IMG/VR virus record: IMGVR_UViG_2534681773_000020
Direction: 5' to 3' (one strand)
From: a virus
Lineage: Duplodnaviria; Heunggongvirae; Uroviricota; Caudoviricetes
DNA length: 20,815 nucleotides
Positions 1 to 20,013 of this stretch are shown piece by piece. The translations under genes and the position numbers were made by a program. Below the pieces are notes generated by a model. It saw only the letters and a list, made by a program, of their open reading frames with translations. It was not told the DNA's origin and did no database searches. Every line of letters starts with the position of its first letter. Within the stretch, counting starts at the first letter, position 1.

Positions 1-1119
1 TCAAATAACCAACTTAACCCATTCCTGACCTCGAGTATCGTTATAGCGATCGGTGGTTGCCTGGACTTTATGTCCTAGTAATGTTTTTGTATCAATACCC
101 TGTGCACGGTACAGCCGTTCTGATAGAGAGCGTTGTTCATGAAATGTTGGCGGAGTTTTTCCTGCTGGTGGAATTATCCCAGCCAGATCCCGTGCTTTGG
201 CAAAGTAGTCGCTCAGGTTGTCTTTACTCATCGGCTTCGGTTGTTTCTGGTGCCGACTATGGATTAGATATGGACTTAATATTCTGTCTCGGCACCCATC
301 AATAACTTCTTTTAACGTTATCCCAATGGCATCACAGCGTAGTGTAAGCGGTAACGCCAGACGCATTCCGGTTTTTCCCTGGGTGATATGCAAGTGTTCG
401 TTCCACACATCTGAAAAACGCATGTGGCAAATGTCATCACGGCGCTGACCAGTAACAATCGCAAGAAGCATTGCGTTACGGATAAAGTGTTTTTCAGGCG
501 TTGCATTGTAAATTTTTTGCCAGTCTTCCATGGTGAGCCTGGCTCTGGTTACTTTAGGGATCGGTTTACGGGTAGCCTCCGGAGGATTCCATCCAGGAGG
601 AACTTCCCCTGCATGCTGTGCTTCTTTATAAATATCAACCCATAATCCACGATTTACTCTCGCTGTGCTGACCATGTCTTTATCCAGCCACTCATCCAGT
701 ATTAATGCAAAGTCTCTTACTTCCAGTTCTTTCAATGGGTGGTTTCCCAGACGGGAAACCAGGTATGCAGCCATTCGGGTTTTTTCTTTGTGAGTTGTAG
801 CTGCAATATCTCCATTTTTCAGTCGCGTGTCCTGTATTTTCAGATATCGATCAACCCATGCCTTTAATCTGATACCCCGACGTTTTGTTGCTGACGGACT
901 TTCATCAATTTTGCGCATGAAATATTCAGCTTCTGCTGCAGCTATTCGCTGATTGGCTGTGGAAGCGATTTTTTCTGCCTTACCTTTGTCTGTTCCGAGT
1001 CCGTGAAATTTTCCAGTCACAGGATTTTTATACTGGTAGTAAACTCTGCCAGTTCTGCGATCAAACTTTTCGTAAAGACCGGCTACGTCAGTGCTGTTTT
1101 TTCGTGGCCTCGGTGACAT
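1..1119 (-). CDS. int: Phage tyrosine integrase (site-specific recombinase), complete
   Basis: 372-aa ORF ending at window edge; C-terminal catalytic residues in HEQRSL, LLGHK and TDRYNDTRG (R-H-R-Y type); sits at prophage end next to xis. Confidence 0.9.
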   Translation of the reverse strand: MSPRPRKNSTDVAGLYEKFDRRTGRVYYQYKNPVTGKFHGLGTDKGKAEKIASTANQRIAAAEAEYFMRKIDESPSATKRRGIRLKAWVDRYLKIQDTRLKNGDIAATTHKEKTRMAAYLVSRLGNHPLKELEVRDFALILDEWLDKDMVSTARVNRGLWVDIYKEAQHAGEVPPGWNPPEATRKPIPKVTRARLTMEDWQKIYNATPEKHFIRNAMLLAIVTGQRRDDICHMRFSDVWNEHLHITQGKTGMRLALPLTLRCDAIGITLKEVIDGCRDRILSPYLIHSRHQKQPKPMSKDNLSDYFAKARDLAGIIPPAGKTPPTFHEQRSLSERLYRAQGIDTKTLLGHKVQATTDRYNDTRGQEWVKLVI

Positions 1120-1357
1120 GAGTTAAAATCTCCTTCAGTGCATCATCATCGCCAGTATGAATTTCCGGCGCAATTCCCGTTTCACCAGGCCCAACAAATA
1201 CTGCTCGGCGATCTATCAGCCAACGCCCACGAATTTTTTGTGGTCTTGGAACGATGTATCCTAGTTTTCCGTATTTCACCAGGGTAGTGTTTGTTATTGG
1301 GAGACTGAACCGTTTTGGTTTCCACTCGTCGAGCGTTATCAGGTACTGTTCGCTCAT
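1088..1357 (-). CDS. xis: Excisionase (Xis-like small DNA-binding protein)
   Basis: 89-aa ORF immediately upstream of int and overlapping its start by 32 nt; ATG at 1357 preceded by GGAG at 8 nt; ORF track GTG alternative at 1366. Confidence 0.65.
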   Translation of the reverse strand: MSEQYLITLDEWKPKRFSLPITNTTLVKYGKLGYIVPRPQKIRGRWLIDRRAVFVGPGETGIAPEIHTGDDDALKEILTHVTEATKKQH

Positions 1358-1418: not shown

Positions 1419-3890
1419 TTAAAAATCAGCCTGATTCGGGATCAGTTTTTGCCAGATAGCTGAAACGTATTTTGCCTGGTGACGAGCGTCATCAAGTGCA
1501 TTATGGCGCTCACCTTCGAATGGAATAGCCGTTCTGGCATCGAAGTCTATGGCTTTCCCCAGCTCAACGATTGTGCGTACATCGCGATCGTTGTAGTAAC
1601 GCCACGGGCAGGGGATCCCCTGCCGTTCGTATGAACGGCGCAAAATCGTGTTGTCGAAGTTGGCTCCATTTCCCCAGACCTGAACAAAAAATTCACCGGA
1701 GTTTTCGTCGATAAATTCCCGCAATTGTAACAGTGCATCATCTAACGGGATTTCATCGGTCATAATGGCAGATTGCGCTTCGCGTGATTGCTTAAGCCAC
1801 CATTTAATGGTGTCCCGATCAATGACTCCGCCAGCAGTTTCCAGATCGATAGTCTTACTAAATTCCGGTCCCATATCTCCGGTTTGCGGATCGAAAAATA
1901 TTGCACCTATTGAGATGATCGGGGCATCAGGATTTTTTCCCATGGTTTCAAGGTCGATCATTAGATGGTCACACGTCCTGCTGGTGGATGTGATTTCTTG
2001 ATGACCGTTCACCTTAATTGAGTGATCTGCCGTCTCGCCAGTTTCATTATCGCTGGCATGATGCTGATTGCCGCCAGTGTTCTCCTTGTGTGGATGTTCA
2101 GCGCCTTCCATTTCCTCCGGATCATCTTCCTGAACTTCAGGCTGATACTCTTCATCGAATGTTTCCTGGTATGTTGCGTCGCCCATTACCGCGCCACAAT
2201 CAGGGCAGTTGCCACCACCGCTTTGACCGCAGGCGGTGCAGACTTTTTCCGGTTCCTGTTGCGCTACTGGCTCAGGTTGTTTCGTTTCTGGCTCGTTTTG
2301 TAACGCATTTGGGCTGTTTTGTTCCGCTTTCTGGCCGTTCTGTTCCGTTTCTTGTTGGTTCTGATTCACTGAATCGCGGGTTTCAATCCCCTTCACCCAT
2401 TTCGGATCATTCGGGTCGCTAATCCCTGCAACAAATTCACCACGTGATACTGCAAGCAGTTCATCGGCGTCAGGTTGGCTGATATTGGCTGCCTGCATAA
2501 TTTTGTTTACTTCGTCAGCGGTAACTTTTACCGGCCCTGGTTGTGCGGTCGTGTCAGATGCACCAGTATTTTGTTGTGAACCTGAGTATGTACTGTTTTT
2601 GCGGGCGAAATATTCTTCTTTCGTGATTTCAGTAGCCCCGGCAGCCAGCGCCTTATCCAGACCAGAAAGTTTGTTTGCGCGACCGTATTTTTCGCCATCC
2701 TTGTCGGTGAAGAGGAAGTAGAACGGCCCCTCTCGCTCTACAGATGCTTCGACTTCCACTTTGCATTCGGTTTTTTCGTTGTCCGGAATTGCCGTTTCCA
2801 CTGCATCAGTTTCTGGTACTGGCGACGAGAGAGTATCAGTTGCGCTCTGATTTCTTCCTTCATCTTCAAACACGCCCTTTGTAGTCAGGTATTCAGTAAT
2901 GTATTTGTTCAGTGCCACAGGGTCTTTGTGAATGTCGATCGGACGTTCACGGACAAGGCCAAAAATAGTCTGGCGGTCGTAGCGAAGGGCATCAGGCTGT
3001 TTGCGCATTGATGCCGAGATACGCTTCCAGTCTTCGCGGTCGTTGTCGATAACTTCATTTTTTGCCCAGCGATGGATGCTGCCGTCAATGTTTCCGGCAT
3101 CCACATCACCAGGCCAGAGAGCGTAGGCCAGTTCGTCATCCAGTGTTTTCCATGTCTGCTTGTATTCGCGATGAATGGCAGCAATGACCGGGTTGATTTT
3201 TCCTGTTGAATTTTCAGTGTGCTGTTGATTGGTTCTGGCGCGGGCGAGATCAACAACAGACGTGTATTTTCCGGTTTCCTTGCGTTCACCTTCGCGACGT
3301 TTTTTCCAGATGCGCATCTCTGCCTGAATTTCGGGCCATTTAGCACCAGGAATACATTTATGCTTAACCCACCCAATGGCGTGCAACTTAAGCTCCGGAT
3401 ACATGGCGTTAACTTCTGGCATTTTCATCAACGCTTCAACGATATGTCCGTCGAATGTTGCCATGTCTTCCTGCAACAATTCCTGTGCGCTAATAACCAT
3501 ATCAACGGTGATGTTTTCACATGTGTCGAACTTAACCATGACAGCGTTCTGTACTTCAGGGGCCAGCTTGTCAAAAGTGACGTTCATCGGATCGGATTCA
3601 GTCTCAACCGGGACAAAAGAAGCAGACTCCTCATCCCAGCGGTTTTCCTGCATATATTCAGCATCCCATGAATCGAGGGCAGGGCGGGGTATGCCAGGTT
3701 TATCCTCGCAGACAAGAAATTTATAAGCGCAGTCCTGAGCAGCCGGATAATGTTCCAGGAATTGCCAGTGAAATTTTGCTCGAGCACGGCGTTCGTCGCC
3801 AGCTTCAATGGCAGTGGCTACAGCGACTGCACCTTCTTCCTTTATTGCCTGTTCGTCCGGAATGGCGGCGCAAATAAAGACTTTACTCAT
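1419..3890 (-). CDS. Large phage protein with C-terminal DEDDh (DnaQ/RNase T-like) 3'-5' exonuclease domain; N-terminal about 600 aa unknown with acidic Q/E/P-rich linker and CxxC-x8-CxxC zinc ribbon
   Basis: 823-aa ORF; Exo motifs IDLETMG (D-x-E), WGNGANFD and HNALDDARH in last 190 aa; CTACGQSGGGNCPDCGA zinc-ribbon-like motif near residue 540; GAGG 9 nt upstream of ATG. Confidence 0.85.
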   Translation of the reverse strand: MSKVFICAAIPDEQAIKEEGAVAVATAIEAGDERRARAKFHWQFLEHYPAAQDCAYKFLVCEDKPGIPRPALDSWDAEYMQENRWDEESASFVPVETESDPMNVTFDKLAPEVQNAVMVKFDTCENITVDMVISAQELLQEDMATFDGHIVEALMKMPEVNAMYPELKLHAIGWVKHKCIPGAKWPEIQAEMRIWKKRREGERKETGKYTSVVDLARARTNQQHTENSTGKINPVIAAIHREYKQTWKTLDDELAYALWPGDVDAGNIDGSIHRWAKNEVIDNDREDWKRISASMRKQPDALRYDRQTIFGLVRERPIDIHKDPVALNKYITEYLTTKGVFEDEGRNQSATDTLSSPVPETDAVETAIPDNEKTECKVEVEASVEREGPFYFLFTDKDGEKYGRANKLSGLDKALAAGATEITKEEYFARKNSTYSGSQQNTGASDTTAQPGPVKVTADEVNKIMQAANISQPDADELLAVSRGEFVAGISDPNDPKWVKGIETRDSVNQNQQETEQNGQKAEQNSPNALQNEPETKQPEPVAQQEPEKVCTACGQSGGGNCPDCGAVMGDATYQETFDEEYQPEVQEDDPEEMEGAEHPHKENTGGNQHHASDNETGETADHSIKVNGHQEITSTSRTCDHLMIDLETMGKNPDAPIISIGAIFFDPQTGDMGPEFSKTIDLETAGGVIDRDTIKWWLKQSREAQSAIMTDEIPLDDALLQLREFIDENSGEFFVQVWGNGANFDNTILRRSYERQGIPCPWRYYNDRDVRTIVELGKAIDFDARTAIPFEGERHNALDDARHQAKYVSAIWQKLIPNQADF

Positions 3891-3982: not shown

Positions 3983-4174
3983 TTAAAGACCTGCCGGGAT
4001 TTCGTTATTATCCTGGTGAATAACTTTATCGACCGGGTAACAGTTACCGGGAATTTTCTGTTCGGTTGCTGCAGTCACACACTCCTGCATTGTCCTGTGA
4101 ACACTGACTGCAATATCAACTGGCTCTCCGGAAACAAGAAAAACTGTCAGAACAAGTGCAAATGCTGTATTCAT
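3983..4174 (-). CDS. ydfD: YdfD-like small protein (63 aa) with N-terminal hydrophobic/signal-like segment
   Basis: ATG at 4174 overlaps upstream stop in an ATGA junction; AAAGGA 8 nt upstream; translation MNTAFALVLTVFLVSGEPVDIAVSV... recalled as close to E. coli YdfD of the dicB operon. Confidence 0.55.
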   Translation of the reverse strand: MNTAFALVLTVFLVSGEPVDIAVSVHRTMQECVTAATEQKIPGNCYPVDKVIHQDNNEIPAGL

Positions 4175-4359
4175 TGCCAGCATCCTTTTTGTATCGGACG
4201 TAAACGGGCCAGCATTGAAAGAATGCATATTTTATTTAATAGCTCCCGTTCGTGTTTTCTCTTGTTAATGGCATCTTCAGTAAATACAGGGTTACTGATA
4301 GTGACACCAATTTCAAAACAACCTTCAGACGTATTAACGTTTGGTAATAACGTTTCCAT
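4171..4359 (-). CDS. dicB: DicB-like cell division inhibitor (62 aa)
   Basis: Internal ATG at 4359 with GAGGA 7 nt upstream; translation METLLPNVNTSEGCFEIGVTISNPVFTEDAINKRK... matches recalled DicB (MinC-dependent division inhibitor) almost residue for residue; lies directly downstream of DicF homolog. Confidence 0.6.
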   Translation of the reverse strand: METLLPNVNTSEGCFEIGVTISNPVFTEDAINKRKHERELLNKICILSMLARLRPIQKGCWQ

Positions 4360-4528: not shown

Positions 4529-4586
4529 AAAAAGGGCGGCAGAGCAGTCACGGAGTAAAACTGATACCGCCAAACGTCACCAGAAA
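4529..4586 (-). ncRNA. dicF: DicF-like small regulatory RNA (about 53 nt plus U-tract)
   Basis: Reverse complement of 4534-4586 reads TTTCTGGTGACGTTTGGCGGTATCAGTTTTACTCCGTGACTGCTCTGCCGCCC followed by TTTTT, matching the recalled E. coli DicF sequence; located between upstream ORF and dicB as in the Qin dicB operon. Confidence 0.6.
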
Positions 4587-4890: not shown

Positions 4891-5277
4891 TTAATGATTA
4901 ATTGATATTTTGTTATTTGATTCAACTTTCCCATCGGATGTGTGATGCTTTAAATCACAGGAATTAATACTGCTCGCTGTAAAATGATTTTCAAGGGGAG
5001 CTATTCGAATCCCTTTCTTTTTCATTAACAAGCCAAATCCTTTATTAATGATGTCCATTAATTCCAGGAAGTATTTTTCATGTAAATCCTGGTTATCAGA
5101 GAGCTGCTTCTCTTCGTACAGACCGATAAAGGCACGACGCACGTTACCGGATATAGTATCGATGGTTTCTTTTTCTACGGTACTCAGGTCAAGAGTCGCC
5201 AGTTGAGAGCGAACCACATTCGATGCCATTTCCTGGAATGGTACTGGTAAATCTTTAAATTCCATCGTCAACCTCAT
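4891..5277 (-). CDS. Hypothetical protein (128 aa; alternative start at 5265 with GAGG at 7 nt)
   Basis: ORF in early-left operon orientation; start overlaps stop of upstream YdfA-like gene (ATGA); no recognisable motif. Confidence 0.5.
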   Translation of the reverse strand: MRLTMEFKDLPVPFQEMASNVVRSQLATLDLSTVEKETIDTISGNVRRAFIGLYEEKQLSDNQDLHEKYFLELMDIINKGFGLLMKKKGIRIAPLENHFTASSINSCDLKHHTSDGKVESNNKISINH

Positions 5278-5701: not shown

Positions 5702-6418
5702 TCAGTCTAAGTATTGATGTATTTGTGAAACTTTACCTTTAATGGTGTAACCACCATTCAGTTCGATGGGTTTGTAAAGCGGATTCAGTGACAACAGATA
5801 GATGTTTGGTCCGTCAATCGCAACTTTTTTTAGTGTTACGTTTGGAGTTCCTTCCAATTGGATTAAGATTATTTTTCCCACCAGTTCTCTAATGTTACTT
5901 GAGCATGGTGTGATCAGCACGGTAGATCCGTCGGGGATGGTTGGGAGGCCGTTAGAGTTTGTCATCGCATCTCCCTCAACATGCAATAAAAAAGAGTTTT
6001 CAGCGGTTTTTGTCATGACATCAACCCAATTCTTAATACCAGGAATCTCGGTTACTGGACAACTCATATCCCAATAACCAGCCTGTTCCCACGTTAAAAC
6101 GGGCAACCGGGCGATGTTGTCACTAATGTAAGGGTACTGATTCAGACGCAGATCATCGGCTTTATCGTGACCGTCCTTTCCATAAAGAATCCATTCAGGA
6201 GATTTGGAAAGCAATTTTGACAGTAGATACAAATTCTCACCGTCAGGTTTTGAAGAGCCATTTTCCCATTTTGTTACGGATACACGAGATATGCCGATTG
6301 CTTTCGCAACCTGCTGTTGGGTTAATCCAACGTCTTTTCGACGATTCCGAATACGTTCGCTGATAGTGTTTTTCATGTAACCAATGTTACTACCAAGTGA
6401 TGTTGCTATGGTTGACAT
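5702..6418 (-). CDS. cI: CI-type phage repressor (N-terminal XRE-family HTH, C-terminal S24 LexA-like autopeptidase)
   Basis: 238 aa; HTH QQQVAKAIGISRVSVTKWENG; C-terminal S24-like region with GDAM and KK motifs; no SD upstream of ATG, consistent with leaderless translation as for lambda cI from pRM. Confidence 0.9.
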   Translation of the reverse strand: MSTIATSLGSNIGYMKNTISERIRNRRKDVGLTQQQVAKAIGISRVSVTKWENGSSKPDGENLYLLSKLLSKSPEWILYGKDGHDKADDLRLNQYPYISDNIARLPVLTWEQAGYWDMSCPVTEIPGIKNWVDVMTKTAENSFLLHVEGDAMTNSNGLPTIPDGSTVLITPCSSNIRELVGKIILIQLEGTPNVTLKKVAIDGPNIYLLSLNPLYKPIELNGGYTIKGKVSQIHQYLD

Positions 6419-6683: not shown

Positions 6684-7105
6684 AAATCAAGCATGAACAC
6701 ATCCGCATGGCGATGAATGTCTGGGCGCATCCGGACGGCGAAAAAGTACCGGCTGCGAAAATTACCAAAGCGTATTTCGAGCTGGGAATGACGTTCCCGG
6801 AACTGTATGACGACAGCCATCCGGAAGCCCTGGGTCGTAATACCCAGAAAATTTTCCGCTGGCTGAAGAAAGACACTCCTGATGCGGTTAAAAAAATTCA
6901 GGCGTTGTTACCGGCGATCGAAAAAGCAATGCCGCCTCCGCTGGTGGCCCGAATGCGCAGCCACAGTTCGGAATATCACCGGGAGCTTGTCGAGCGACGG
7001 GAGCGCCTGGTGAAAGATATCGATGAGTTTGTTGCATCAGCGATCGTTCTGTTCGATCAGATGAATCGCGGTGGTCCGGCAGGAAATACTCTGCTTGTGC
7101 ATTAA
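6680..7105 (+). CDS. ydaT: YdaT-like protein (CII-position regulator / putative toxin YdaT family)
   Basis: 141 aa; N-terminus MKIKHEHI as recalled for Rac YdaT; ATGA overlap with cro stop; AAGGAAAG SD. Confidence 0.7.
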   Translation: MKIKHEHIRMAMNVWAHPDGEKVPAAKITKAYFELGMTFPELYDDSHPEALGRNTQKIFRWLKKDTPDAVKKIQALLPAIEKAMPPPLVARMRSHSSEYHRELVERRERLVKDIDEFVASAIVLFDQMNRGGPAGNTLLVH

Positions 7106-7118
7106 TTGGGTAATAAAT

Positions 7119-7628
7119 ATGAATAATGACAAAAAATTGACACTGAGCGTTTACGAAAACAGTCCGCACATCTGGCGTGGCGGTTTATCTGATGTGGAGC
7201 TGGCAGAGTGGTTGATACATAAAGCTAATGCGCTGCTCTGGCGTTTGTCAGCCAGAGAACAGCACAAGGAAACCAGAATAAAGCTGGCTGATGCAGAAGC
7301 GTGTGCCGGGCTTATTGAGGATTATACAAATCTTGGTATTTCTTCAGCAGAGAGTGATCCCATTCAGCCTCTGAGCAGGGAGTCAATCCAGCACGCTGGT
7401 TGTATGGCACATCTTGTAACTGCTCGTCAACATGAGGTGGGTATTGGATCACTTCCGGTGGGATATTCGCTGATTCCAGAGCTGGTTGAAGCAAGAAAAT
7501 CAGTTCAGAAAAAGAGAGATGACGCACTTCAATTATTGAGAGAGCACTATGGCGCGATACCAGAATGCGAACAGCGTCGATACCCTGAAGGTTATGAATG
7601 GATGCAGTCTCTTTTTGAAGTTCGCTAA
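7119..7628 (+). CDS. Hypothetical protein (169 aa)
   Basis: Long ORF between ydaT-like and replication genes; ATG at 7119 chosen because the GTG at 7071 overlaps ydaT; weak SD. Confidence 0.55.
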   Translation: MNNDKKLTLSVYENSPHIWRGGLSDVELAEWLIHKANALLWRLSAREQHKETRIKLADAEACAGLIEDYTNLGISSAESDPIQPLSRESIQHAGCMAHLVTARQHEVGIGSLPVGYSLIPELVEARKSVQKKRDDALQLLREHYGAIPECEQRRYPEGYEWMQSLFEVR

Positions 7629-9741: not shown

Positions 9742-10037
9742 GGGTGAGGGTTTATATCGCTGGTCCGATGATCGGGTATAAAAATTTCAACCGTGAGGCG
9801 TTCCACAATGCGGAAGAGGAACTGAAACGGGAAGGGCATACAGTCTTAAACCCGGCAGTACTTCCGGACGGGCTGACACAGCCGCACTACATGGATATTT
9901 GCATGGCAATGATTCGTTGTGTGGATGCGATTTACATGCTGAAAGGCTGGCAGCGGTCAGCTGGCGCTAAGGCAGAACTGGCGCTGGCGGAGAAACTGGG
10001 GCATGCAGTTATTTTCCAGGAGACAGCCAGTGAGTGA
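9738..10037 (+). CDS. DUF4406 / nucleoside 2-deoxyribosyltransferase-like fold protein (99 aa)
   Basis: GTG start with AGGAGG 7 nt upstream, GTGA overlap with previous stop; N-terminal YIAGPM motif typical of the nucleoside deoxyribosyltransferase-like superfamily. Confidence 0.65.
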   Translation: MRVRVYIAGPMIGYKNFNREAFHNAEEELKREGHTVLNPAVLPDGLTQPHYMDICMAMIRCVDAIYMLKGWQRSAGAKAELALAEKLGHAVIFQETASE

Positions 10038-10290
10038 ATCAAAATGCCAGGTTCATGGCAACAAAATAGAACCGTGTGCTGCATTGGCAAAAGCACTCGA
10101 ATATGGAAATCCAGCATTTAAGAGTAAAGGCATATTTATCCCGGAACGCGTGAATATAAACACCGGCGAGCCAGGCTTAGACATCGCTCAAATACACTCC
10201 GGTCAATATGTTGGTCGTGGCGTTGCAATGTGTTTTTGTCCGTTCTGTGGTGAAAGTCTGAAAACATGGGGAGGAGGAAGTAACCGGTGA
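10030..10290 (+). CDS. Hypothetical small cysteine-containing protein (86 aa, possible zinc-binding CPFCGE motif)
   Basis: GTG at 10030 with AGGAGA 7 nt upstream; ORF track ATG alternative at 10003 overlaps previous gene. Confidence 0.5.
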   Translation: MSESKCQVHGNKIEPCAALAKALEYGNPAFKSKGIFIPERVNINTGEPGLDIAQIHSGQYVGRGVAMCFCPFCGESLKTWGGGSNR

Positions 10291-12238: not shown

Positions 12239-12475
12239 CGATATGGGAATTCCCATATCGGGTAAAAACGGTTTGCGGTAAAGCGAGAGTTAAGTAGAAT
12301 TGCTGCGGGTGCTTGAGGCTGTCTGCCTCGGGCATGCCACCGTAAGGCAGACAGAGAAAAGCCCCAGTTAACATTACGCGTCCTGCAAGACGCTTAACAT
12401 TAATCTGAGGCCCAATCTATGCTTCACAAACGTAGGTTAGCCTCTTACGCGCCGAAAGGCAAGGAGAAGCAGGCT
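12239..12475. promoter_or_regulatory. Structured leader/regulatory region upstream of hok-like toxin (candidate mok-leader and antisense Sok-like RNA region)
   Basis: 22-bp perfect palindrome CGATATGGGAATTCCCATATCG (12239-12260); 10-bp inverted repeat CTGTCTGCCT/AGGCAGACAG (about 12319-12354); direct repeat TTAACATTA x2 flanking GCGTC/GACGC hairpin (about 12368-12402). Confidence 0.4.
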
Positions 12476-12631
12476 ATGAAGCAGCAAAAGGCGATGTTAA
12501 TCGCCCTGATCGTCATCTGTTTAACCGTCATAGTGACGGCACTGGTAACGAGGAAAGACCTCTGCGAGGTACGAATCCGAACCGGCCAGACGGAGGTCGC
12601 TGTCTTCACAGCTTACGAACCTGAGGAGTAA
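12476..12631 (+). CDS. hokD: Hok/Gef-family type I toxin (51 aa)
   Basis: MKQQKAMLIALIVICLTVIVTALVTRKDLCEVRIRTGQTEVAVFTAYEPEE matches the Hok family signature and the recalled HokD/RelF sequence; AAGGAGAAG SD; in-frame upstream extension from 12419 may correspond to a mok-like frame. Confidence 0.8.
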   Translation: MKQQKAMLIALIVICLTVIVTALVTRKDLCEVRIRTGQTEVAVFTAYEPEE

Positions 12632-12798: not shown

Positions 12799-13071
12799 AT
12801 GGTGCACAAAACCAAATTTCACAATTCTGATACCGACCTTGCCATCCGGCATGGGCGGCGTTCACACGCATTTAAAACCGACTGGTACCAACACCCACCA
12901 TGTACTGAAGAACAGGCCGAATGGCTAATTCATAACTACCGCAGACGCGGATACGAGATTAAGAAAGCCCTCAGCCTCGATTATCGTCACTGGATAATCT
13001 ATGTCAGGCTCCCTTATTCCGAACGCCCACCGCGTCCGTCCCGCACATTCCAGCAACGCATCTGGAGGTAA
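12799..13071 (+). CDS. Hypothetical protein (90 aa), Rem-like position
   Basis: ORF between hok and DUF968 gene, same arrangement as rem between hokD and ydfU in Qin; weak SD. Confidence 0.5.
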   Translation: MVHKTKFHNSDTDLAIRHGRRSHAFKTDWYQHPPCTEEQAEWLIHNYRRRGYEIKKALSLDYRHWIIYVRLPYSERPPRPSRTFQQRIWR

Positions 13072-13072
13072 C

Positions 13073-14128
13073 GTGCGGGTATTACTTCGACCTGTTCCGG
13101 TACCGGAACTTGGGCTGGTGGTGCTAAAACCGGGCCGTGAATCCATGCAGGTATTTCATAACCCTCGAGTTCTGGTGGAGCCGGAACCGAAAAGCATGCG
13201 CGGTCTGCCGTCCGGAGTCGTTCCTGCTGTTCGCCAGCCGCTGGCGGAGGATAAATCATTACTGCCATTTTTCAGCGATGAGCGGGTGATTCGTGCTGCT
13301 GGTGGTGCTGGTGCATTGTCTGACTGGCTGTTACGCCACATTAAATCCTGCCAGTGGCCTCATGGTGACTACCATCACAGTGAAACCGTCATACATCGTT
13401 ACGGTACCGGCGCGATGGTGTTGTGCTGGCACTGCGACAACCAGCTGCGTAACCAGACTTCCGAATCACTCGGGCAGCTTGCTCACCAAAACCTGTCAGC
13501 ATGGATGATTGATGTCATCCGCCACGCAATGAATGGCACGCAGGAGCGGGAATTATCGCTGGCTGAATTATCCTGGTGGGCAACCATAAATAACGTAGCG
13601 GACGCACTACCGGAGACGGTGTTACGTCGTTCACTGGGATTACGCGCGGAAAAAATTCGCTCAGTATACCGCGAGAGCGACATCGTGCCGGGAGAGCAGA
13701 CCGCCACCAGCATGCTGAAGCAGCGCACAAAAAATATTGCGCTACTGCCTCACGCCCACCAGCAAAACCCGCCACAGGAAAAGACGGTGGTAAGCATTGC
13801 CGTTGATCCGGAGTCACCGGCTCAGTATCTCCAGCGCCAGAAACCACGACGGGAAGAGATGCCTGTATACACGCGTTGGGTAAAAACGCAGAAATGCATG
13901 ACGTGTGGTAATCAGGCAGATGATCCGCATCACATCATTGGTCATGGACTGGGAGGGATGGGAACAAAGGCTGATGATTTGTTTGTTATTCCGCTGTGCC
14001 GTAAATGCCATAGCGAACTACACGCCGGGGTAAAAGATTTTGAAGAAAAACACGGCAGCCAGCTGTTGTTGCTGATTCGTTTTTTAATGCACGCGAGAAA
14101 TTCGGGTGTCCTGAAGTGGAAAGCATGA
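13073..14128 (+). CDS. DUF968 (YdfU-like) protein with C-terminal Cys/His HNH-like zinc motif
   Basis: GTG at 13073 with GGAGG 4 nt upstream, immediately after previous stop (ORF track ATG alternative 13001); C-terminal CMTCGNQADDPHHIIGHGLGGMGTKADDLFVIPLCRKCHSELH. Confidence 0.65.
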   Translation: MRVLLRPVPVPELGLVVLKPGRESMQVFHNPRVLVEPEPKSMRGLPSGVVPAVRQPLAEDKSLLPFFSDERVIRAAGGAGALSDWLLRHIKSCQWPHGDYHHSETVIHRYGTGAMVLCWHCDNQLRNQTSESLGQLAHQNLSAWMIDVIRHAMNGTQERELSLAELSWWATINNVADALPETVLRRSLGLRAEKIRSVYRESDIVPGEQTATSMLKQRTKNIALLPHAHQQNPPQEKTVVSIAVDPESPAQYLQRQKPRREEMPVYTRWVKTQKCMTCGNQADDPHHIIGHGLGGMGTKADDLFVIPLCRKCHSELHAGVKDFEEKHGSQLLLLIRFLMHARNSGVLKWKA

Positions 14129-14494
14129 ATGACTGAACGCATAGAATTTGTTTTGCCTTACCCGCCAACGGTGAACACTTACTGGCGACGTCGTGGCAGC
14201 ACATATTTTGTATCAAAAGCCGGTGAGCGTTATCGCCGTGATGTGGCGCTTATTGTTCGCCAGCAGCGGCTGAAATTAAACCTGTCCGGAAGGCTGGCGA
14301 TAAAGATTATTGCAGAGCCACCGGATAAACGTCGTCGTGACCTGGACAATATCCTGAAAGCACCACTGGATGCGCTGACGCATGCCGGACTTCTCATAGA
14401 CGACGAGCAGTTTGATGAAATCAATATTGTGCGCGGTCAGCGCGTTCCTGGGGGACGGCTGGGCGTGAAGATTTACAAAATTGAGAGTGAGTGA
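14129..14494 (+). CDS. rusA: RusA Holliday junction resolvase
   Basis: 121 aa; start abuts previous stop; RusA-family motifs LPYPPTVNTYW and RRDLDNILKAPLDAL. Confidence 0.85.
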   Translation: MTERIEFVLPYPPTVNTYWRRRGSTYFVSKAGERYRRDVALIVRQQRLKLNLSGRLAIKIIAEPPDKRRRDLDNILKAPLDALTHAGLLIDDEQFDEINIVRGQRVPGGRLGVKIYKIESE

Positions 14495-15624: not shown

Positions 15625-16674
15625 ATGATTAATACTGTAAAAATATCCAGTTGTGAGTTAATCAACGCTGATTGCCTGGAATTTATCCAGACCTTACCGG
15701 AAAACTCTGTCGATCTGATAGTCACAGACCCGCCATACTTTAAAGTGAAGCCCGAGGGCTGGGATAACCAGTGGGAGGGCGACGATGATTACCTGAAATG
15801 GCTGGACCAGTGTCTGGCGCAGTTCTGGCGGGTACTGAAGCCTGCCGGAAGTCTTTACCTGTTCTGTGGTCATCGCCTGGCATCTGACACCGAAATCATG
15901 ATGCGTGAGCGCTTTAATGTGCTGAACCACATTATCTGGGCGAAGCCGTCCGGACGCTGGAACGGGTGCAATAAGGAAAGTCTGCGGGCGTATTTTCCGG
16001 CAACAGAGCGCATTCTGTTTGCAGAACATTATCAGGGACCGTATCGCCCGAAAGATGATGGCTATGTGGCACAGGGGCGCGAGCTAAAACAGCACGTCAT
16101 GGCCCCGCTGATTTCTTACTTTCGTGATGCGCGTAAATCACTGGGAATAACGTCAAAACAGATAGCGGAAGCCACCGGAAAGAAAAACATGGCTTCGCAC
16201 TGGTTTGGTACCAGTCAGTGGCAGTTACCGAACGAGGGTAATTACAACAAATTGCAGGCGTTGTTTGCGCGTGTTGCGGCAGAAAAACATCAGCGCGGGG
16301 AACTGGAAAAGCCACACCACCAGCTGGTCAGCACATACAGTGAGCTGAACCGGCAGTATACGGAACTGCTGAGTGAATATAAAAATTTGCGGCGGTATTT
16401 CGGTGTGACGGCGCAGGTTCCGTACACCGATGTCTGGACGCATAAACCGGTGCAGTACTATCCAGGGAAACATCCGTGCGAAAAAACGGCAGAAATGCTG
16501 CAGCAGATAATCAACGCGAGCAGTCGTCCGGGAGACCTGGTTGCAGATTTTTTTATGGGTTCAGGTTCAACGGTAAAAGCGGCGATGGCACTGGGGCGTT
16601 GTGCGATTGGTGTTGAGCTGGAGACAGGACGTTTTGAACAGACAGTCAGGGAAGTTCAGGATTTAATCGTTTGA
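15625..16674 (+). CDS. Orphan DNA methyltransferase, beta-class N6-adenine/N4-cytosine (PF01555-like)
   Basis: 349 aa; motif IV VTDPPYF near N-terminus and AdoMet motif I FFMGSGST near C-terminus; no adjacent restriction endonuclease. Confidence 0.9.
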   Translation: MINTVKISSCELINADCLEFIQTLPENSVDLIVTDPPYFKVKPEGWDNQWEGDDDYLKWLDQCLAQFWRVLKPAGSLYLFCGHRLASDTEIMMRERFNVLNHIIWAKPSGRWNGCNKESLRAYFPATERILFAEHYQGPYRPKDDGYVAQGRELKQHVMAPLISYFRDARKSLGITSKQIAEATGKKNMASHWFGTSQWQLPNEGNYNKLQALFARVAAEKHQRGELEKPHHQLVSTYSELNRQYTELLSEYKNLRRYFGVTAQVPYTDVWTHKPVQYYPGKHPCEKTAEMLQQIINASSRPGDLVADFFMGSGSTVKAAMALGRCAIGVELETGRFEQTVREVQDLIV

Positions 16675-16723: not shown

Positions 16724-16799
16724 GGCCCTTTAGCTCAGTGGTGAGAGCGAGCGACTCATAATCGCCAGGTCGCTGGTTCAAATCCAGCAAGGGCCACCA
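16724..16799 (+). tRNA. ileZ: tRNA with anticodon CAT (Ile2 lysidine-type or Met; resembles ileX/ileZ class), CCA encoded
   Basis: Cloverleaf folded by hand: acceptor GGCCCTT/AAGGGCC, D-stem GCTC/GAGC, anticodon loop CTCATAA, T-arm GCTGG-TTCAAAT-CCAGC. Confidence 0.85.
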
Positions 16800-16899: not shown

Positions 16900-16976
16900 G
16901 CGTTGTTAGCTCAGCCGGACAGAGCAATTGCCTTCTAAGCAATCGGTCAGTGGTTCGACTCCACTACAACGCGCCA
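16900..16976 (+). tRNA. argO: tRNA-Arg (anticodon TCT), CCA encoded
   Basis: Acceptor GCGTTGT/ACAACGC, D-stem GCTC/GAGC, anticodon stem ATTGC/GCAAT with loop CTTCTAA, T-arm AGTGG-TTCGACT-CCACT. Confidence 0.85.
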
Positions 16977-17741: not shown

Positions 17742-17922
17742 TTTTTTTATTTGCTGTTTATTAAAAACACTTCTGCATGGTGAATCCCCCTGTGCGGAGG
17801 GGCGACTGGTGTAGGTAGCATTTATTATGTTATAGGCAAGCCGACGCGGGTTCAGTGACACCGGCTGAATTCACCGGGAGGCACCCGGCACCATGCAAGA
17901 AAAAGAATGTGTATGCAAACAT

Positions 17923-17948
17923 GCCCCTCTCCGGAGGGGCATTTTTTA
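17923..17948 (+). terminator. Intrinsic terminator
   Basis: GCCCCTC-TCCG-GAGGGGC stem-loop followed by ATTTTTTAT. Confidence 0.55.
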
Positions 17949-18162
17949 TGGGTAAAAAATGCCCGAATGGGTTCGGGCAATAGCATGAGATACTGATATT
18001 GTTGTGTTGTTATCGTGTGGATTTTAACCAGGGTTTATCAGGCTGCGCAACTGCGTGGCCTTTTTTCATTTCTTGGGCTGTAGTCCCCGTGTGTCATTCA
18101 GGCTTCCGGACTACAGCCCACTCCATATCTGATTTAATACACTATCCCGGCCGGGAGGAATA

Positions 18163-20013
18163 ATGACATTTAAACATTATGATGTTGTCAGGGCGGCGTC
18201 GCCGTCAGACCTTGCGGAAAAGCTGACACACAAACTGAAAGAGGGCTGGCAGCCGTTTGGTAGTCCGGTGGCCATAACCCCTTATACCCTGATGCAGGCG
18301 ATTACAGCAGAAGGTGATGTGGTGGTCAGTGGTGCAACTGAGCCGGATTGGTACTACGTCATCGTACTGGCCGGGCAATCCAATGCCATGGCTTACGGTG
18401 AAGGGCTTCCGCTGCCGGATTCATACGATGCTCCGGATCCGCGCATTAAACAGCTGGCGCGCCGCAGTACAGTTACGCCGGGTGGGGCTGCCTGCAGATA
18501 TAACGATATTATTCCGGCCGACCACTGCCTGCATGATGTGCAGGATATGAGTACGCTGAATCATCCGAAGGCAGACCTGAGCAAAGGGCAGTACGGCTGT
18601 GTCGGCCAGGGCTTACATATTGCCAAAAAACTGCTTCCGTATATCCCGAATAACGCGGGGATCCTGCTGGTACCATGCTGTCGTGGTGGTTCGGCATTCA
18701 CCCAGGGCGCGGAGGGGACATTCAGTGCGGACGCGGGGGCCAGCCAGGATTCGGCACGCTGGGGTGTGGGTAAACCGTTATATCAGGACCTGATTGCGCG
18801 CACCAAAGCTGCATTACAGAAGAACCCGAAAAATGTGTTGCTGGCGGTGTGCTGGATGCAGGGAGAGTTTGACATGAGCGCCGCCACCCACGCACAGCAA
18901 CCTGCGCTGTTTACAGCCATGCTGACACAGTTTCGTGTTGACCTCTCCGTGTTTAACGCGCAGTGCCATGGTGGCAGTGCTGCAGATGTGCCGTGGATTT
19001 GTGGTGACACGACGTATTACTGGAAAAATACATACGCTACCCAGTACGACACCGTGTACGGCGGGTATAAAAACAGGGAGAGTGAGGGCGTTTATTTTGT
19101 GCCCTTCATGACAGACGGTAACGGCGTCAATACCGCCACTAACGCGCCGGCAGAAGATCCGGATATTCCGGCATCAGGATATTACGGTGCGGCATCGAGA
19201 ACGAATGGAAACCAGGTATCATCAAACCGCCCGACACATTTCAGTTCATGGGCGCGCAGGAGCATTATTCCGGATCGTCTGGCAACCGCTATTCTGAACG
19301 CAGCCGGGCGCACCTCAGCCTTCATCAGTGGTAAGGCACCGGAAATCAAACCCTCGCCCGGCGGCAACACGCCATCGGGTCCGTCTGCAGATACGTCCGT
19401 TCGCACAATCTCCCTGCTGCCGACAGCCGGAGAGGCTGCTGCGCAGGGCTGGACCATTAAGGACGGCGGAATTCAGTTGTCGGGTGGTGTATTTAAGATC
19501 GCCAAGCAGAGCAATAAAACCTGGTCCCTGACGCATCCGGTGGATGACGCAATTACCCTGCTGACACAGGGCGGCAGACTGACCTGTAAGTTCCGCCTGT
19601 CAGGCGCGCTGACCAACAATCAGTTCGGGCTGGGGATTTATCTGTATACGGATGCTCCCGTTCCTGATGGTGTGGCGATGACGGGTACCGGTAATCCGTT
19701 CCTGATGTCGTACTTCACTCAGACCACTGACGGCAGAGTGAATCTGATGCATCACAGGAAAGCCGGAAACACGAAGCTGGGGGAGTTCGGCGATTACGGT
19801 AACGACTGGCAGACGCTGGAGCTGGTGTTCACCGCCGGCAGTGCCACGGTTACTCCGAAACTGAATGGAGTGGCTGGCCCGGCATTCCAGGTCATAAAAG
19901 ACAGTCTGACACTGGGGCTGAATGCGCTGACGCTGACGGATATTACCAAAAATGCAGCGTATGGCGTTGAGATAGAAAGTCTGGTGCTGGAGATAAATGC
20001 ACCGGCAGCATAA
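18163..20013 (+). CDS. nanS-p: Prophage sialate 9-O-acetylesterase (NanS-p type; N-terminal DUF1737-like region plus SGNH/SASA esterase domain)
   Basis: 616 aa; GGGAGGAA SD; N-terminus MTFKHYDVVRAASPSDLAEKL; SASA block VLAGQSNAMAYGEG; the position downstream of the late tRNAs is where Stx phages carry this gene. Confidence 0.8.
   Translation: MTFKHYDVVRAASPSDLAEKLTHKLKEGWQPFGSPVAITPYTLMQAITAEGDVVVSGATEPDWYYVIVLAGQSNAMAYGEGLPLPDSYDAPDPRIKQLARRSTVTPGGAACRYNDIIPADHCLHDVQDMSTLNHPKADLSKGQYGCVGQGLHIAKKLLPYIPNNAGILLVPCCRGGSAFTQGAEGTFSADAGASQDSARWGVGKPLYQDLIARTKAALQKNPKNVLLAVCWMQGEFDMSAATHAQQPALFTAMLTQFRVDLSVFNAQCHGGSAADVPWICGDTTYYWKNTYATQYDTVYGGYKNRESEGVYFVPFMTDGNGVNTATNAPAEDPDIPASGYYGAASRTNGNQVSSNRPTHFSSWARRSIIPDRLATAILNAAGRTSAFISGKAPEIKPSPGGNTPSGPSADTSVRTISLLPTAGEAAAQGWTIKDGGIQLSGGVFKIAKQSNKTWSLTHPVDDAITLLTQGGRLTCKFRLSGALTNNQFGLGIYLYTDAPVPDGVAMTGTGNPFLMSYFTQTTDGRVNLMHHRKAGNTKLGEFGDYGNDWQTLELVFTAGSATVTPKLNGVAGPAFQVIKDSLTLGLNALTLTDITKNAAYGVEIESLVLEINAPAA

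Follow-up and report, generated by a model that had tools for sequence, protein, structure and literature searches.

The exonuclease gene

The window analyzed here is the whole 20,815-nucleotide (nt) stretch of viral DNA recorded in IMG/VR as IMGVR_UViG_2534681773_000020, which represents the int-to-lysis half of a lambdoid Escherichia coli prophage beside potC and is 98% identical to strain ML35. Positions 1419-3890 on the minus strand hold an open reading frame (ORF) of 823 amino acids (aa) with an ATG start. The ORF list and its translation identify it as a genuine, complete gene, which matches PHROG 2082 over its full length, is an annotated coding sequence in ML35 at 98% identity and is named 'exonuclease' or '3'-5' exonuclease' at NCBI and RefSeq. 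Comparison with known sequences indicates that the gene product combines a platform of the RecE family with an exchanged head, because aa 262-625 are homologous to RecE, aa 1-256 correspond to YdfE and DNA homology to recE stops at codon ~622.

The DEDDh exonuclease head

The C-terminal head (aa 623-823; 1419-2024, minus strand) is predicted to be a DexA/Rv2179c-type DEDDh 3'-5' exonuclease from its Pfam match, its similarity to DexA and its conserved catalytic residues. Pfam family PF16473 (Rv2179c-like 3'-5' exoribonuclease domain) matches aa 642-813 (window 1452-1967) at 228.5 bits (cut-off 27; E-value 5.8e-68), and the match spans profile positions 2-177 of 177. All three Exo motifs are present, namely D646-x-E648 in MIDLET, D746 in NFD and H796-x4-D801 in HNALDD, and these five residues are kept in 93-95 of 95 related heads. 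The T4 DNA exonuclease DexA (PDB 8KEL) is the only solved relative found by sequence, with an E-value of 1.3e-6 for the single sequence and 2e-16 for a profile of heads. The same profile retrieves no RNase structure, that of Rv2179c included, and Pfam gives no match to the PD-(D/E)XK/RecE nuclease domain (PF12684/DUF3799) anywhere in the 823-aa protein.

These comparisons place the C-terminus in the DEDDh/DnaQ-like superfamily and outside the RecE/lambda-exo fold. The initial annotation, made from the letters of the sequence, had proposed a C-terminal DEDDh exonuclease with DnaQ/RNase T-like motifs that does not belong to the RecE/lambda-exo family, and the domain searches agree with it on both counts. 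By analogy, DNA rather than RNA would be the substrate of the head, and its polarity would be 3'-5'.

T4 DexA is a 3'-5' DNA exonuclease reported to take part in recombination-dependent intron homing and in the scavenging of host DNA (PMC12153337). The window head shares the DEDDh fold family with DexA and with its E. coli homologue EcD, and its catalytic residues align with those of DexA. Unlike these free-standing proteins of about 200-230 aa, it forms the C-terminal third of a much longer protein; it also has a tyrosine in place of DexA W152, lacks several DexA surface loops (seen as alignment gaps) and shows low overall identity.

Homologues of the head also occur widely in phages as free-standing proteins, for which 753 records were found. 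An example among the Rv2179c-like (PF16473) 'Exo' proteins of lambdoid and P22-like phages is gp30 of phage mEp235, a protein of 182 aa (locus L006, 5001-5549) that is 59% identical to the head and is encoded within an Erf-SSB-exo-Abc2 module. Such proteins differ from the window protein in consisting of a single domain and, in mEp235, in having an annealase alongside; the family's namesake Rv2179c is described as an RNase. The presence of this homologue inside the Erf-SSB-exo-Abc2 module suggests that P22-like recombination modules repeatedly include a DEDDh 3'-5' exonuclease, a component that is so far unstudied.

The N-terminal platform

The remaining 622 residues form a platform with three recognizable parts. 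The first (aa 1-260; 3111-3890, minus strand) is a YdfE-type module defined by identity to ydfE, by Pfam YdfE_N and by an AlphaFold2 (AF2) model. Its first 256 residues are 97% identical to the product of the K-12 Qin pseudogene ydfE, and both YdfE_N (PF27430) and YdfE_C (PF27432) are precomputed Pfam matches on the 96%-identical protein P0002 and on P0053. AF2 predicts a folded region at aa 1-205 (predicted local distance difference test score about 90), followed by disorder at aa 206-244 and a helical domain at aa 245-340.

The middle region (aa 261-470; 2481-3110, minus strand) is shared with RecE, as indicated by BLASTP alignment from RecE residue 278 onward, the NCBIfam RecE model and the AF2 domains. 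The BLASTP alignment as a whole pairs aa 262-625 with K-12 RecE 278-591 at an E-value of 4e-60. The NCBIfam RecE equivalog NF007259 matches aa 245-625 over model positions 270-602 only, and its score of 273.5 bits lies below the cut-off of 1269. Within this region, a beta-beta-alpha mini-domain of ~50 aa (aa 385-435; window 2583-2735), with the sequence ERxGPFY...GRANKL...EISQEEYQARKNG, is nearly invariant in the family and missing in K-12 RecE.

The third part (aa 471-622; 2025-2480, minus strand) consists of an RGEFV-GISDPNDPKWV motif, a Q/N/P-rich stretch, a zinc ribbon and an acidic tail, and it is near-identical to RecE 453-591. The strongly conserved linear motif, RGE(F/Y)V-GISDPNDPKWV (aa 481-500; window 2391-2450), is common to RecE and some annealase fusions described below. 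The predicted zinc ribbon (2196-2240, minus strand) reads CTAC-x7-CPDC (C551, C554, C562 and C565) against CNAC-x7-CPDC in RecE, and Pfam reports a weak DZR match there with an E-value of 0.11. Residues ~500 to ~640 are enriched in Q, N, P, S, T and acidic residues, and aa 561-600 contain 14 D/E and no K/R.

The initial annotation had noticed the zinc ribbon and an acidic low-complexity linker. The linker is found as described; the ribbon is present with a spacer of seven residues (C551-x2-C554-x7-C562-x2-C565) rather than the eight first given. Its description of the N-terminal 600 residues as unknown does not hold, in view of the homology of aa 262-625 to RecE 278-591 and of aa 1-256 to YdfE. 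Its remark that the position and size of the gene recall RecE proves apt and goes further than was supposed, since the likeness amounts to true homology of the non-catalytic platform. RecE, the exonuclease VIII that the Rac prophage encodes alongside RecT, is of similar size and occupies the same slot, in the leftward early operon upstream of xis-int. The two proteins differ in that the window protein has a DEDDh head, expected to act 3'-5', where RecE has a 5'-3' PD-(D/E)XK nuclease; in addition, the first 260 aa are of YdfE type rather than RecE type, and the window gene is not followed by recT, lar and rcbA.

Mosaic junctions and alternative heads

The boundaries of the head are sharp at the DNA level. 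By blastn, homology to the locus of a 900-aa RecE-headed variant (L004, 91.7% nt identity) and homology to Rac recE (83-85% identity over window 2024-2466) end at one and the same base, window 2024. This upstream junction (2018-2030) falls at codon ~622, in ...ADHSI/KVNGHQ...; in the protein alignment, homology to RecE ends at aa ~625. A downstream junction (1375-1418) emerges from blastn comparison with loci L005, L007 and L013: among prophages with three other xis-int modules (those of mEp460, O55:H7 and the ompW site), homology is lost 9-44 nt past the stop codon. Because homology breaks at both flanks, the DEDDh head is a discrete exchangeable cassette that stands in place of 'RecE nuclease + RecT + Lar + RcbA'.

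Protein searches reveal the same exchange. A search with aa 1-631 returns thousands of E. coli proteins of 823 or 826 aa together with a set of 900-aa proteins, in which the platform is about 95% the same but is joined to a RecE-type PD-(D/E)XK domain. Downstream of one gene for such a 900-aa variant come recT, lar, a DUF1187 gene, xis and int. In six loci examined, xis-int comes directly after the DEDDh-headed gene, whereas RecT comes next in the RecE-headed loci examined. All four combinations of a YdfE-type or RecE-type N-terminus with a DEDDh or RecE head are found: the YdfE-type N-terminus is joined to the DEDDh head in the window gene and to the RecE nuclease in P0065, and the RecE-type N-terminus is joined to the DEDDh head in P0129 and to the RecE nuclease in K-12 RecE.

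The wider distribution of the platform was determined by exhaustively searching 1.84 billion cluster representatives with HMMER, after which the long members were classified. Only 246 clusters were recovered, and the named related proteins come from Enterobacterales genera only. A large third group among them carries a head of ~290 aa with Rad52-like signature motifs and is named 'exodeoxyribonuclease VIII' at NCBI. This head has no match in the Pfam copy used, which holds no model for it. We assign it as a Rad52/Sak-fold annealase and not a nuclease, an assignment for which sequence methods alone are not decisive. The fusions (PHROG 2489; Salmonella, Enterobacter, Klebsiella and others) resemble the window protein in having the YdfE_N/YdfE_C platform, at 25-47% identity, and in occupying the same prophage slot. 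They differ from it in the Rad52/Sak-type annealase head and, for the most part, in lacking the zinc-ribbon and acidic segment, and they are flanked by a Gam-like gene and a Sipho_Gp157 gene.

The platform thus bears at least three alternative heads: a PD-(D/E)XK nuclease, a DEDDh exonuclease and a Rad52/Sak-fold annealase. Since module shuffling joins it to exonucleases of either polarity or to an annealase, the platform, and by extension its DEDDh version, is tied to DNA-end and recombination metabolism.

Operon setting and search for an annealase

The exonuclease gene is the final gene of a Qin-like dicF-dicB-ydfD leftward operon and lies ahead of xis-int. Downstream of a cI-like repressor gene (5702-6418), the leftward order is a DUF1391 gene, a 128-aa ORF, DicF, dicB, ydfD, the exonuclease gene, xis and int. 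The DicF small RNA (sRNA) (4534-4585, minus strand), a marker of Qin-type dicBF operons, is identified by Rfam RF00039 at 76.7 bits and by synteny with K-12 Qin. The cell-division inhibitor gene dicB (4171-4359, minus strand) is supported by annotation and PHROG. The next gene, directly upstream of the exonuclease gene and in a shared operon with it, is a ydfD-like lysis gene (DUF1482; 3983-4174, minus strand), which is recognized from the ML35 annotation, PHROG 1092 and Pfam DUF1482 in related loci. On the other side, annotation and PHROG identify the excisionase gene (1088-1357, minus strand) directly downstream and the integrase gene of the potC-adjacent integration site (1-1119, minus strand). 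xis begins 61 nt past the exonuclease gene, and recT, lar and rcbA are not in the gap.

In K-12 Qin the synteny dicF-dicB-ydfD-ydfE is identical; K-12 ydfE differs in being cut by IS2 after codon ~256, with nothing downstream kept. By this comparison, the window gene is in effect the intact form of ydfE, and its operon corresponds, in intact form, to the dicBF-ydfD-ydfE region of K-12 Qin. In phage mEp460, which forms plaques, the gene occurs at 95% identity, again in the order dicB-ydfD-exo-xis-int. A scan of the minus strand in front of the exonuclease gene detected no sigma-70-like promoter, which is weak negative evidence; because no such site lies just upstream, the gene is probably expressed only together with the early operon.

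The 128-aa ORF between the DUF1391 gene and DicF (4891-5277, minus strand) has no Pfam or PADLOC match and belongs only to PHROGs 6937 and 1363, both of unknown function. Other prophages have ydfB/ydfC or other genes in its slot.

Searches for a single-strand annealing partner were negative. Among the sizeable ORFs between int and the lysis region of the 20.8-kb window, none matched a RecT, Erf, Rad52 or Bet family. No annealase appears in the annotation of near-identical prophages, and the same is true of mEp460 and of prophages with other int modules. Small unknown ORFs that might hide an annealase (4891-5277, 7071-7628, 10003-10290 and others) gave no family match, and most are too short. 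These searches agree with the initial annotation, which had seen no annealase gene in the early-left operon. With a DEDDh C-terminus and no annealase gene in the early region, the locus is, as had been proposed, not a standard Red/RecET module.

The sole other recombination-type gene in the window encodes a RusA resolvase (14129-14494, plus strand). Directly upstream of it, at 13001-14128 on the plus strand, is a gene whose DUF968 product has a putative HNH-type nuclease motif. Besides the exonuclease gene, these two are the only nuclease-type genes in the window.

Conservation and abundance

The 823-aa gene is intact and under purifying selection. Eight independent copies were compared, and all eight are intact and of equal length. 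Their ratio of nonsynonymous to synonymous substitution rates (dN/dS) is about 0.28, with values of 0.23-0.31 in each of four segments.

Abundance was assessed by searching 5426 complete E. coli genomes with three queries (window 1419-2023, L002 4787-5622 and L002 3985-4794), with heads counted separately. The DEDDh head is present at the DNA level in 4089 genomes (75%), with 8157 places in total and a maximum of 7 in one genome. The count for the RecE nuclease head is 1736 genomes (32%) and that for recT is 1749, and copies of the DEDDh head are about 4.5 times as numerous as those of recE. The near-equal genome counts of the RecE head and recT suggest that the two travel as one linked cassette. 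The DEDDh-headed version is the commonest version of the platform in E. coli.

Proposed function

The reading that we favor, with modest confidence, is that the gene encodes a lytic-cycle 3'-5' DNA exonuclease that a RecE-type platform would deliver to 3' ends for trimming and that has no annealase of its own. According to this proposal, the platform of aa 1-622 (YdfE-type N-terminus, RecE-shared middle, zinc ribbon and acidic tail) would hold the DexA-type DEDDh head of aa 623-823 where RecE has its 5'-3' PD-(D/E)XK nuclease, and would do for this head whatever targeting job it does for RecE. We infer both an expression timing and a recombination role for the exonuclease. The protein would be made after prophage induction or infection and would be absent in a repressed lysogen, because its gene is the last of the leftward early (dicF-dicB-ydfD) operon. 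The head would then act on 3' ends of phage or host DNA, where the trimming of tails or flaps, or the blunting of ends, would serve recombination or replication. Because there is no cognate annealase, the exonuclease would work alone or with functions supplied by the host or by a co-resident prophage. Of the two functions first suggested for a 3'-5' exonuclease in this position, the processing of DNA ends thus appears better supported than the degradation of nucleic-acid signals. Literature searches returned no paper characterizing the 823-aa protein or its head-swap relation to RecE.

Several considerations weigh against this proposal. A 3'-5' exonuclease generates 5' overhangs, which are not the classical substrate of an annealase or of RecA, and for that reason the protein is hard to picture, mechanistically, as a simple 'RecE substitute'. 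RNA may be the substrate, because the Pfam family is named after an exoribonuclease. The prevalence of the gene (75% of genomes, up to 7 copies) could reflect a benefit to the host, such as defense. The AF2 model of the platform has no informative structural relatives in a fold search of the PDB. The N-terminal platform of RecE, roughly 600 aa, itself has no known function except the boosting of linear-linear recombination (PMC11611040).

A broader conjecture, which we regard as tentative and a good deal less secure than the proposal above, is that the YdfE/RecE platform serves specifically for delivery or as a scaffold, guiding interchangeable DNA-end effectors to a single shared target. This target might be the end used in phage replication or packaging, the replisome or SSB of the host, or RecBCD. 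The DEDDh version would then define an undescribed annealase-independent end-processing pathway of lambdoid phages, which might serve recombination through 5'-tailed intermediates or might protect the ends of phage DNA against nucleases or immune sensors of the host, or hide them from these.

Alternative explanations

The best placed of the alternatives, though an unlikely one, is prophage-encoded defense, in which the head would degrade the DNA of superinfecting phages, for example T-even DNA modified with 5-hydroxymethylcytosine (5hmC), as EcD would in the proposed 'HREX' mechanism. EcD, a free-standing DexA homologue of E. coli, is reported to digest the T4 genome with selectivity for 5hmC, to spare unmodified double-stranded DNA and to protect cells from T4 (PMC12153337). 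The membership of the window head in the same DexA-related family and the extreme frequency of the gene (4089 of 5426 E. coli genomes, up to 7 copies) both speak for such a role. EcD is nevertheless a different protein, as its cloning primers encode a MIDTET... start and another C-terminus; this rules out EcD as a fragment of the 823-aa protein, and a genome-wide scan for the primer sequence returned chance matches only. The loss of DexA D90 (A78 in EcD), a tetramer contact, is said to give EcD its dimeric state and 5hmC specificity, while W152, which stacks on 5hmC, and D169 are the residues kept for recognizing 5hmC (PMC12153337). The window head retains the first of these residues, its equivalent of D90 being D718 (D in 94 of 95 heads), and carries Y765 at the position of the second (Y in 91 of 95 heads); the equivalent of DexA D169 falls outside the reliably aligned region. 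Also counting against defense are the place of the gene as the last in a leftward early operon that is under repression, the absence of any promoter-like site belonging to it, and a PADLOC-DB match limited to a generic CRISPR-associated DEDDh model (E-value 1.7e-5, 23.5 bits). A defense role would moreover leave the interchange of the head with the RecE nuclease and the annealase unexplained.

Also unlikely is a counter-defense or RNA/oligonucleotide nuclease, in which the head would degrade retron multicopy single-stranded DNA, signaling oligonucleotides, small RNAs or RNA 3' ends. The naming of the Pfam family for the Mycobacterium tuberculosis 3'-5' exoribonuclease Rv2179c fits this idea, as does an early-operon position typical of phage counter-defense genes, and Orn is an example of a DEDDh enzyme that degrades short oligonucleotides. 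The profile of heads nevertheless retrieves the DNA exonuclease DexA (E-value 2e-16) but not a single RNase structure. As a partner of the platform, the head is interchangeable with a double-stranded DNA exonuclease and a Rad52-type annealase, and its free-standing homologue lies inside an Erf-SSB-Abc2 recombination module. The literature yielded no support for this role.

Scavenging of host DNA, by which a DexA-like activity would recycle broken host DNA into nucleotides for phage replication, seems quite improbable. The homology to DexA, for which host DNA scavenging is one described role (PMC12153337), is in its favor, together with the lytic-program expression expected from the position of the gene in its operon. 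Scavenging has no need of a 620-aa RecE-type platform, however, and recombination proteins occupy the same slot in relatives. Furthermore, no lambdoid phage is known to degrade the host chromosome.

Finally, a non-functional remnant, that is, a decaying chimera produced by illegitimate recombination and carried in defective prophages, would agree with the many defective prophages of E. coli, the IS2-truncated ydfE fragment that is all K-12 Qin has and the many partial database entries, but it is very improbable given that all eight sampled copies are intact, of the same length and at a dN/dS of about 0.28 in all segments, that the catalytic residues are kept in 93-95 of 95 heads, that plaque-forming mEp460 has the gene and that the same head occurs on two different N-termini.

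Other features of the window

Several further elements lie to the right of the early operon. A sok antitoxin RNA (12307-12481, plus strand; 116 bits) is located near a hokD-like ORF, and hokD is annotated there in related prophages; together they are predicted to form a type I toxin-antitoxin system within the nin region. Two transfer RNA genes (16724-16796 and 16900-16973, plus strand), which are Ile and Arg in annotated relatives, come after a gene for a DNA N6/N4 methyltransferase (15625-16674, plus strand) and lie ahead of the lysis region. Rfam also reports the sRNA STnc100 (17749-17953, plus strand; 153.6 bits) and, abutting it on the opposite strand, the anti-GcvB sRNA AgvB (17954-18015, minus strand; 96.5 bits). 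The pair is just upstream of a gene for a 616-aa SASA-family esterase (18163-20013).

Implications

The 823-aa protein is not a new entity, since it is already catalogued (PHROG 2082, Pfam architecture and RefSeq names) and very common. The comparison flags it as a very abundant prophage enzyme that nobody has characterized. It also indicates that the name 'exodeoxyribonuclease VIII', in hundreds of annotations from Salmonella, Enterobacter and Klebsiella, really denotes annealase fusions. RecE/RecT is a workhorse of recombineering in which the RecE N-terminus has so far had no explanation, and the natural head-swap variants provide a handle for testing the job of the platform. If the DEDDh version were a true defense or counter-defense nuclease, it would be relevant to phage-host biology in pathogenic E. 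coli, where up to seven copies may be present.

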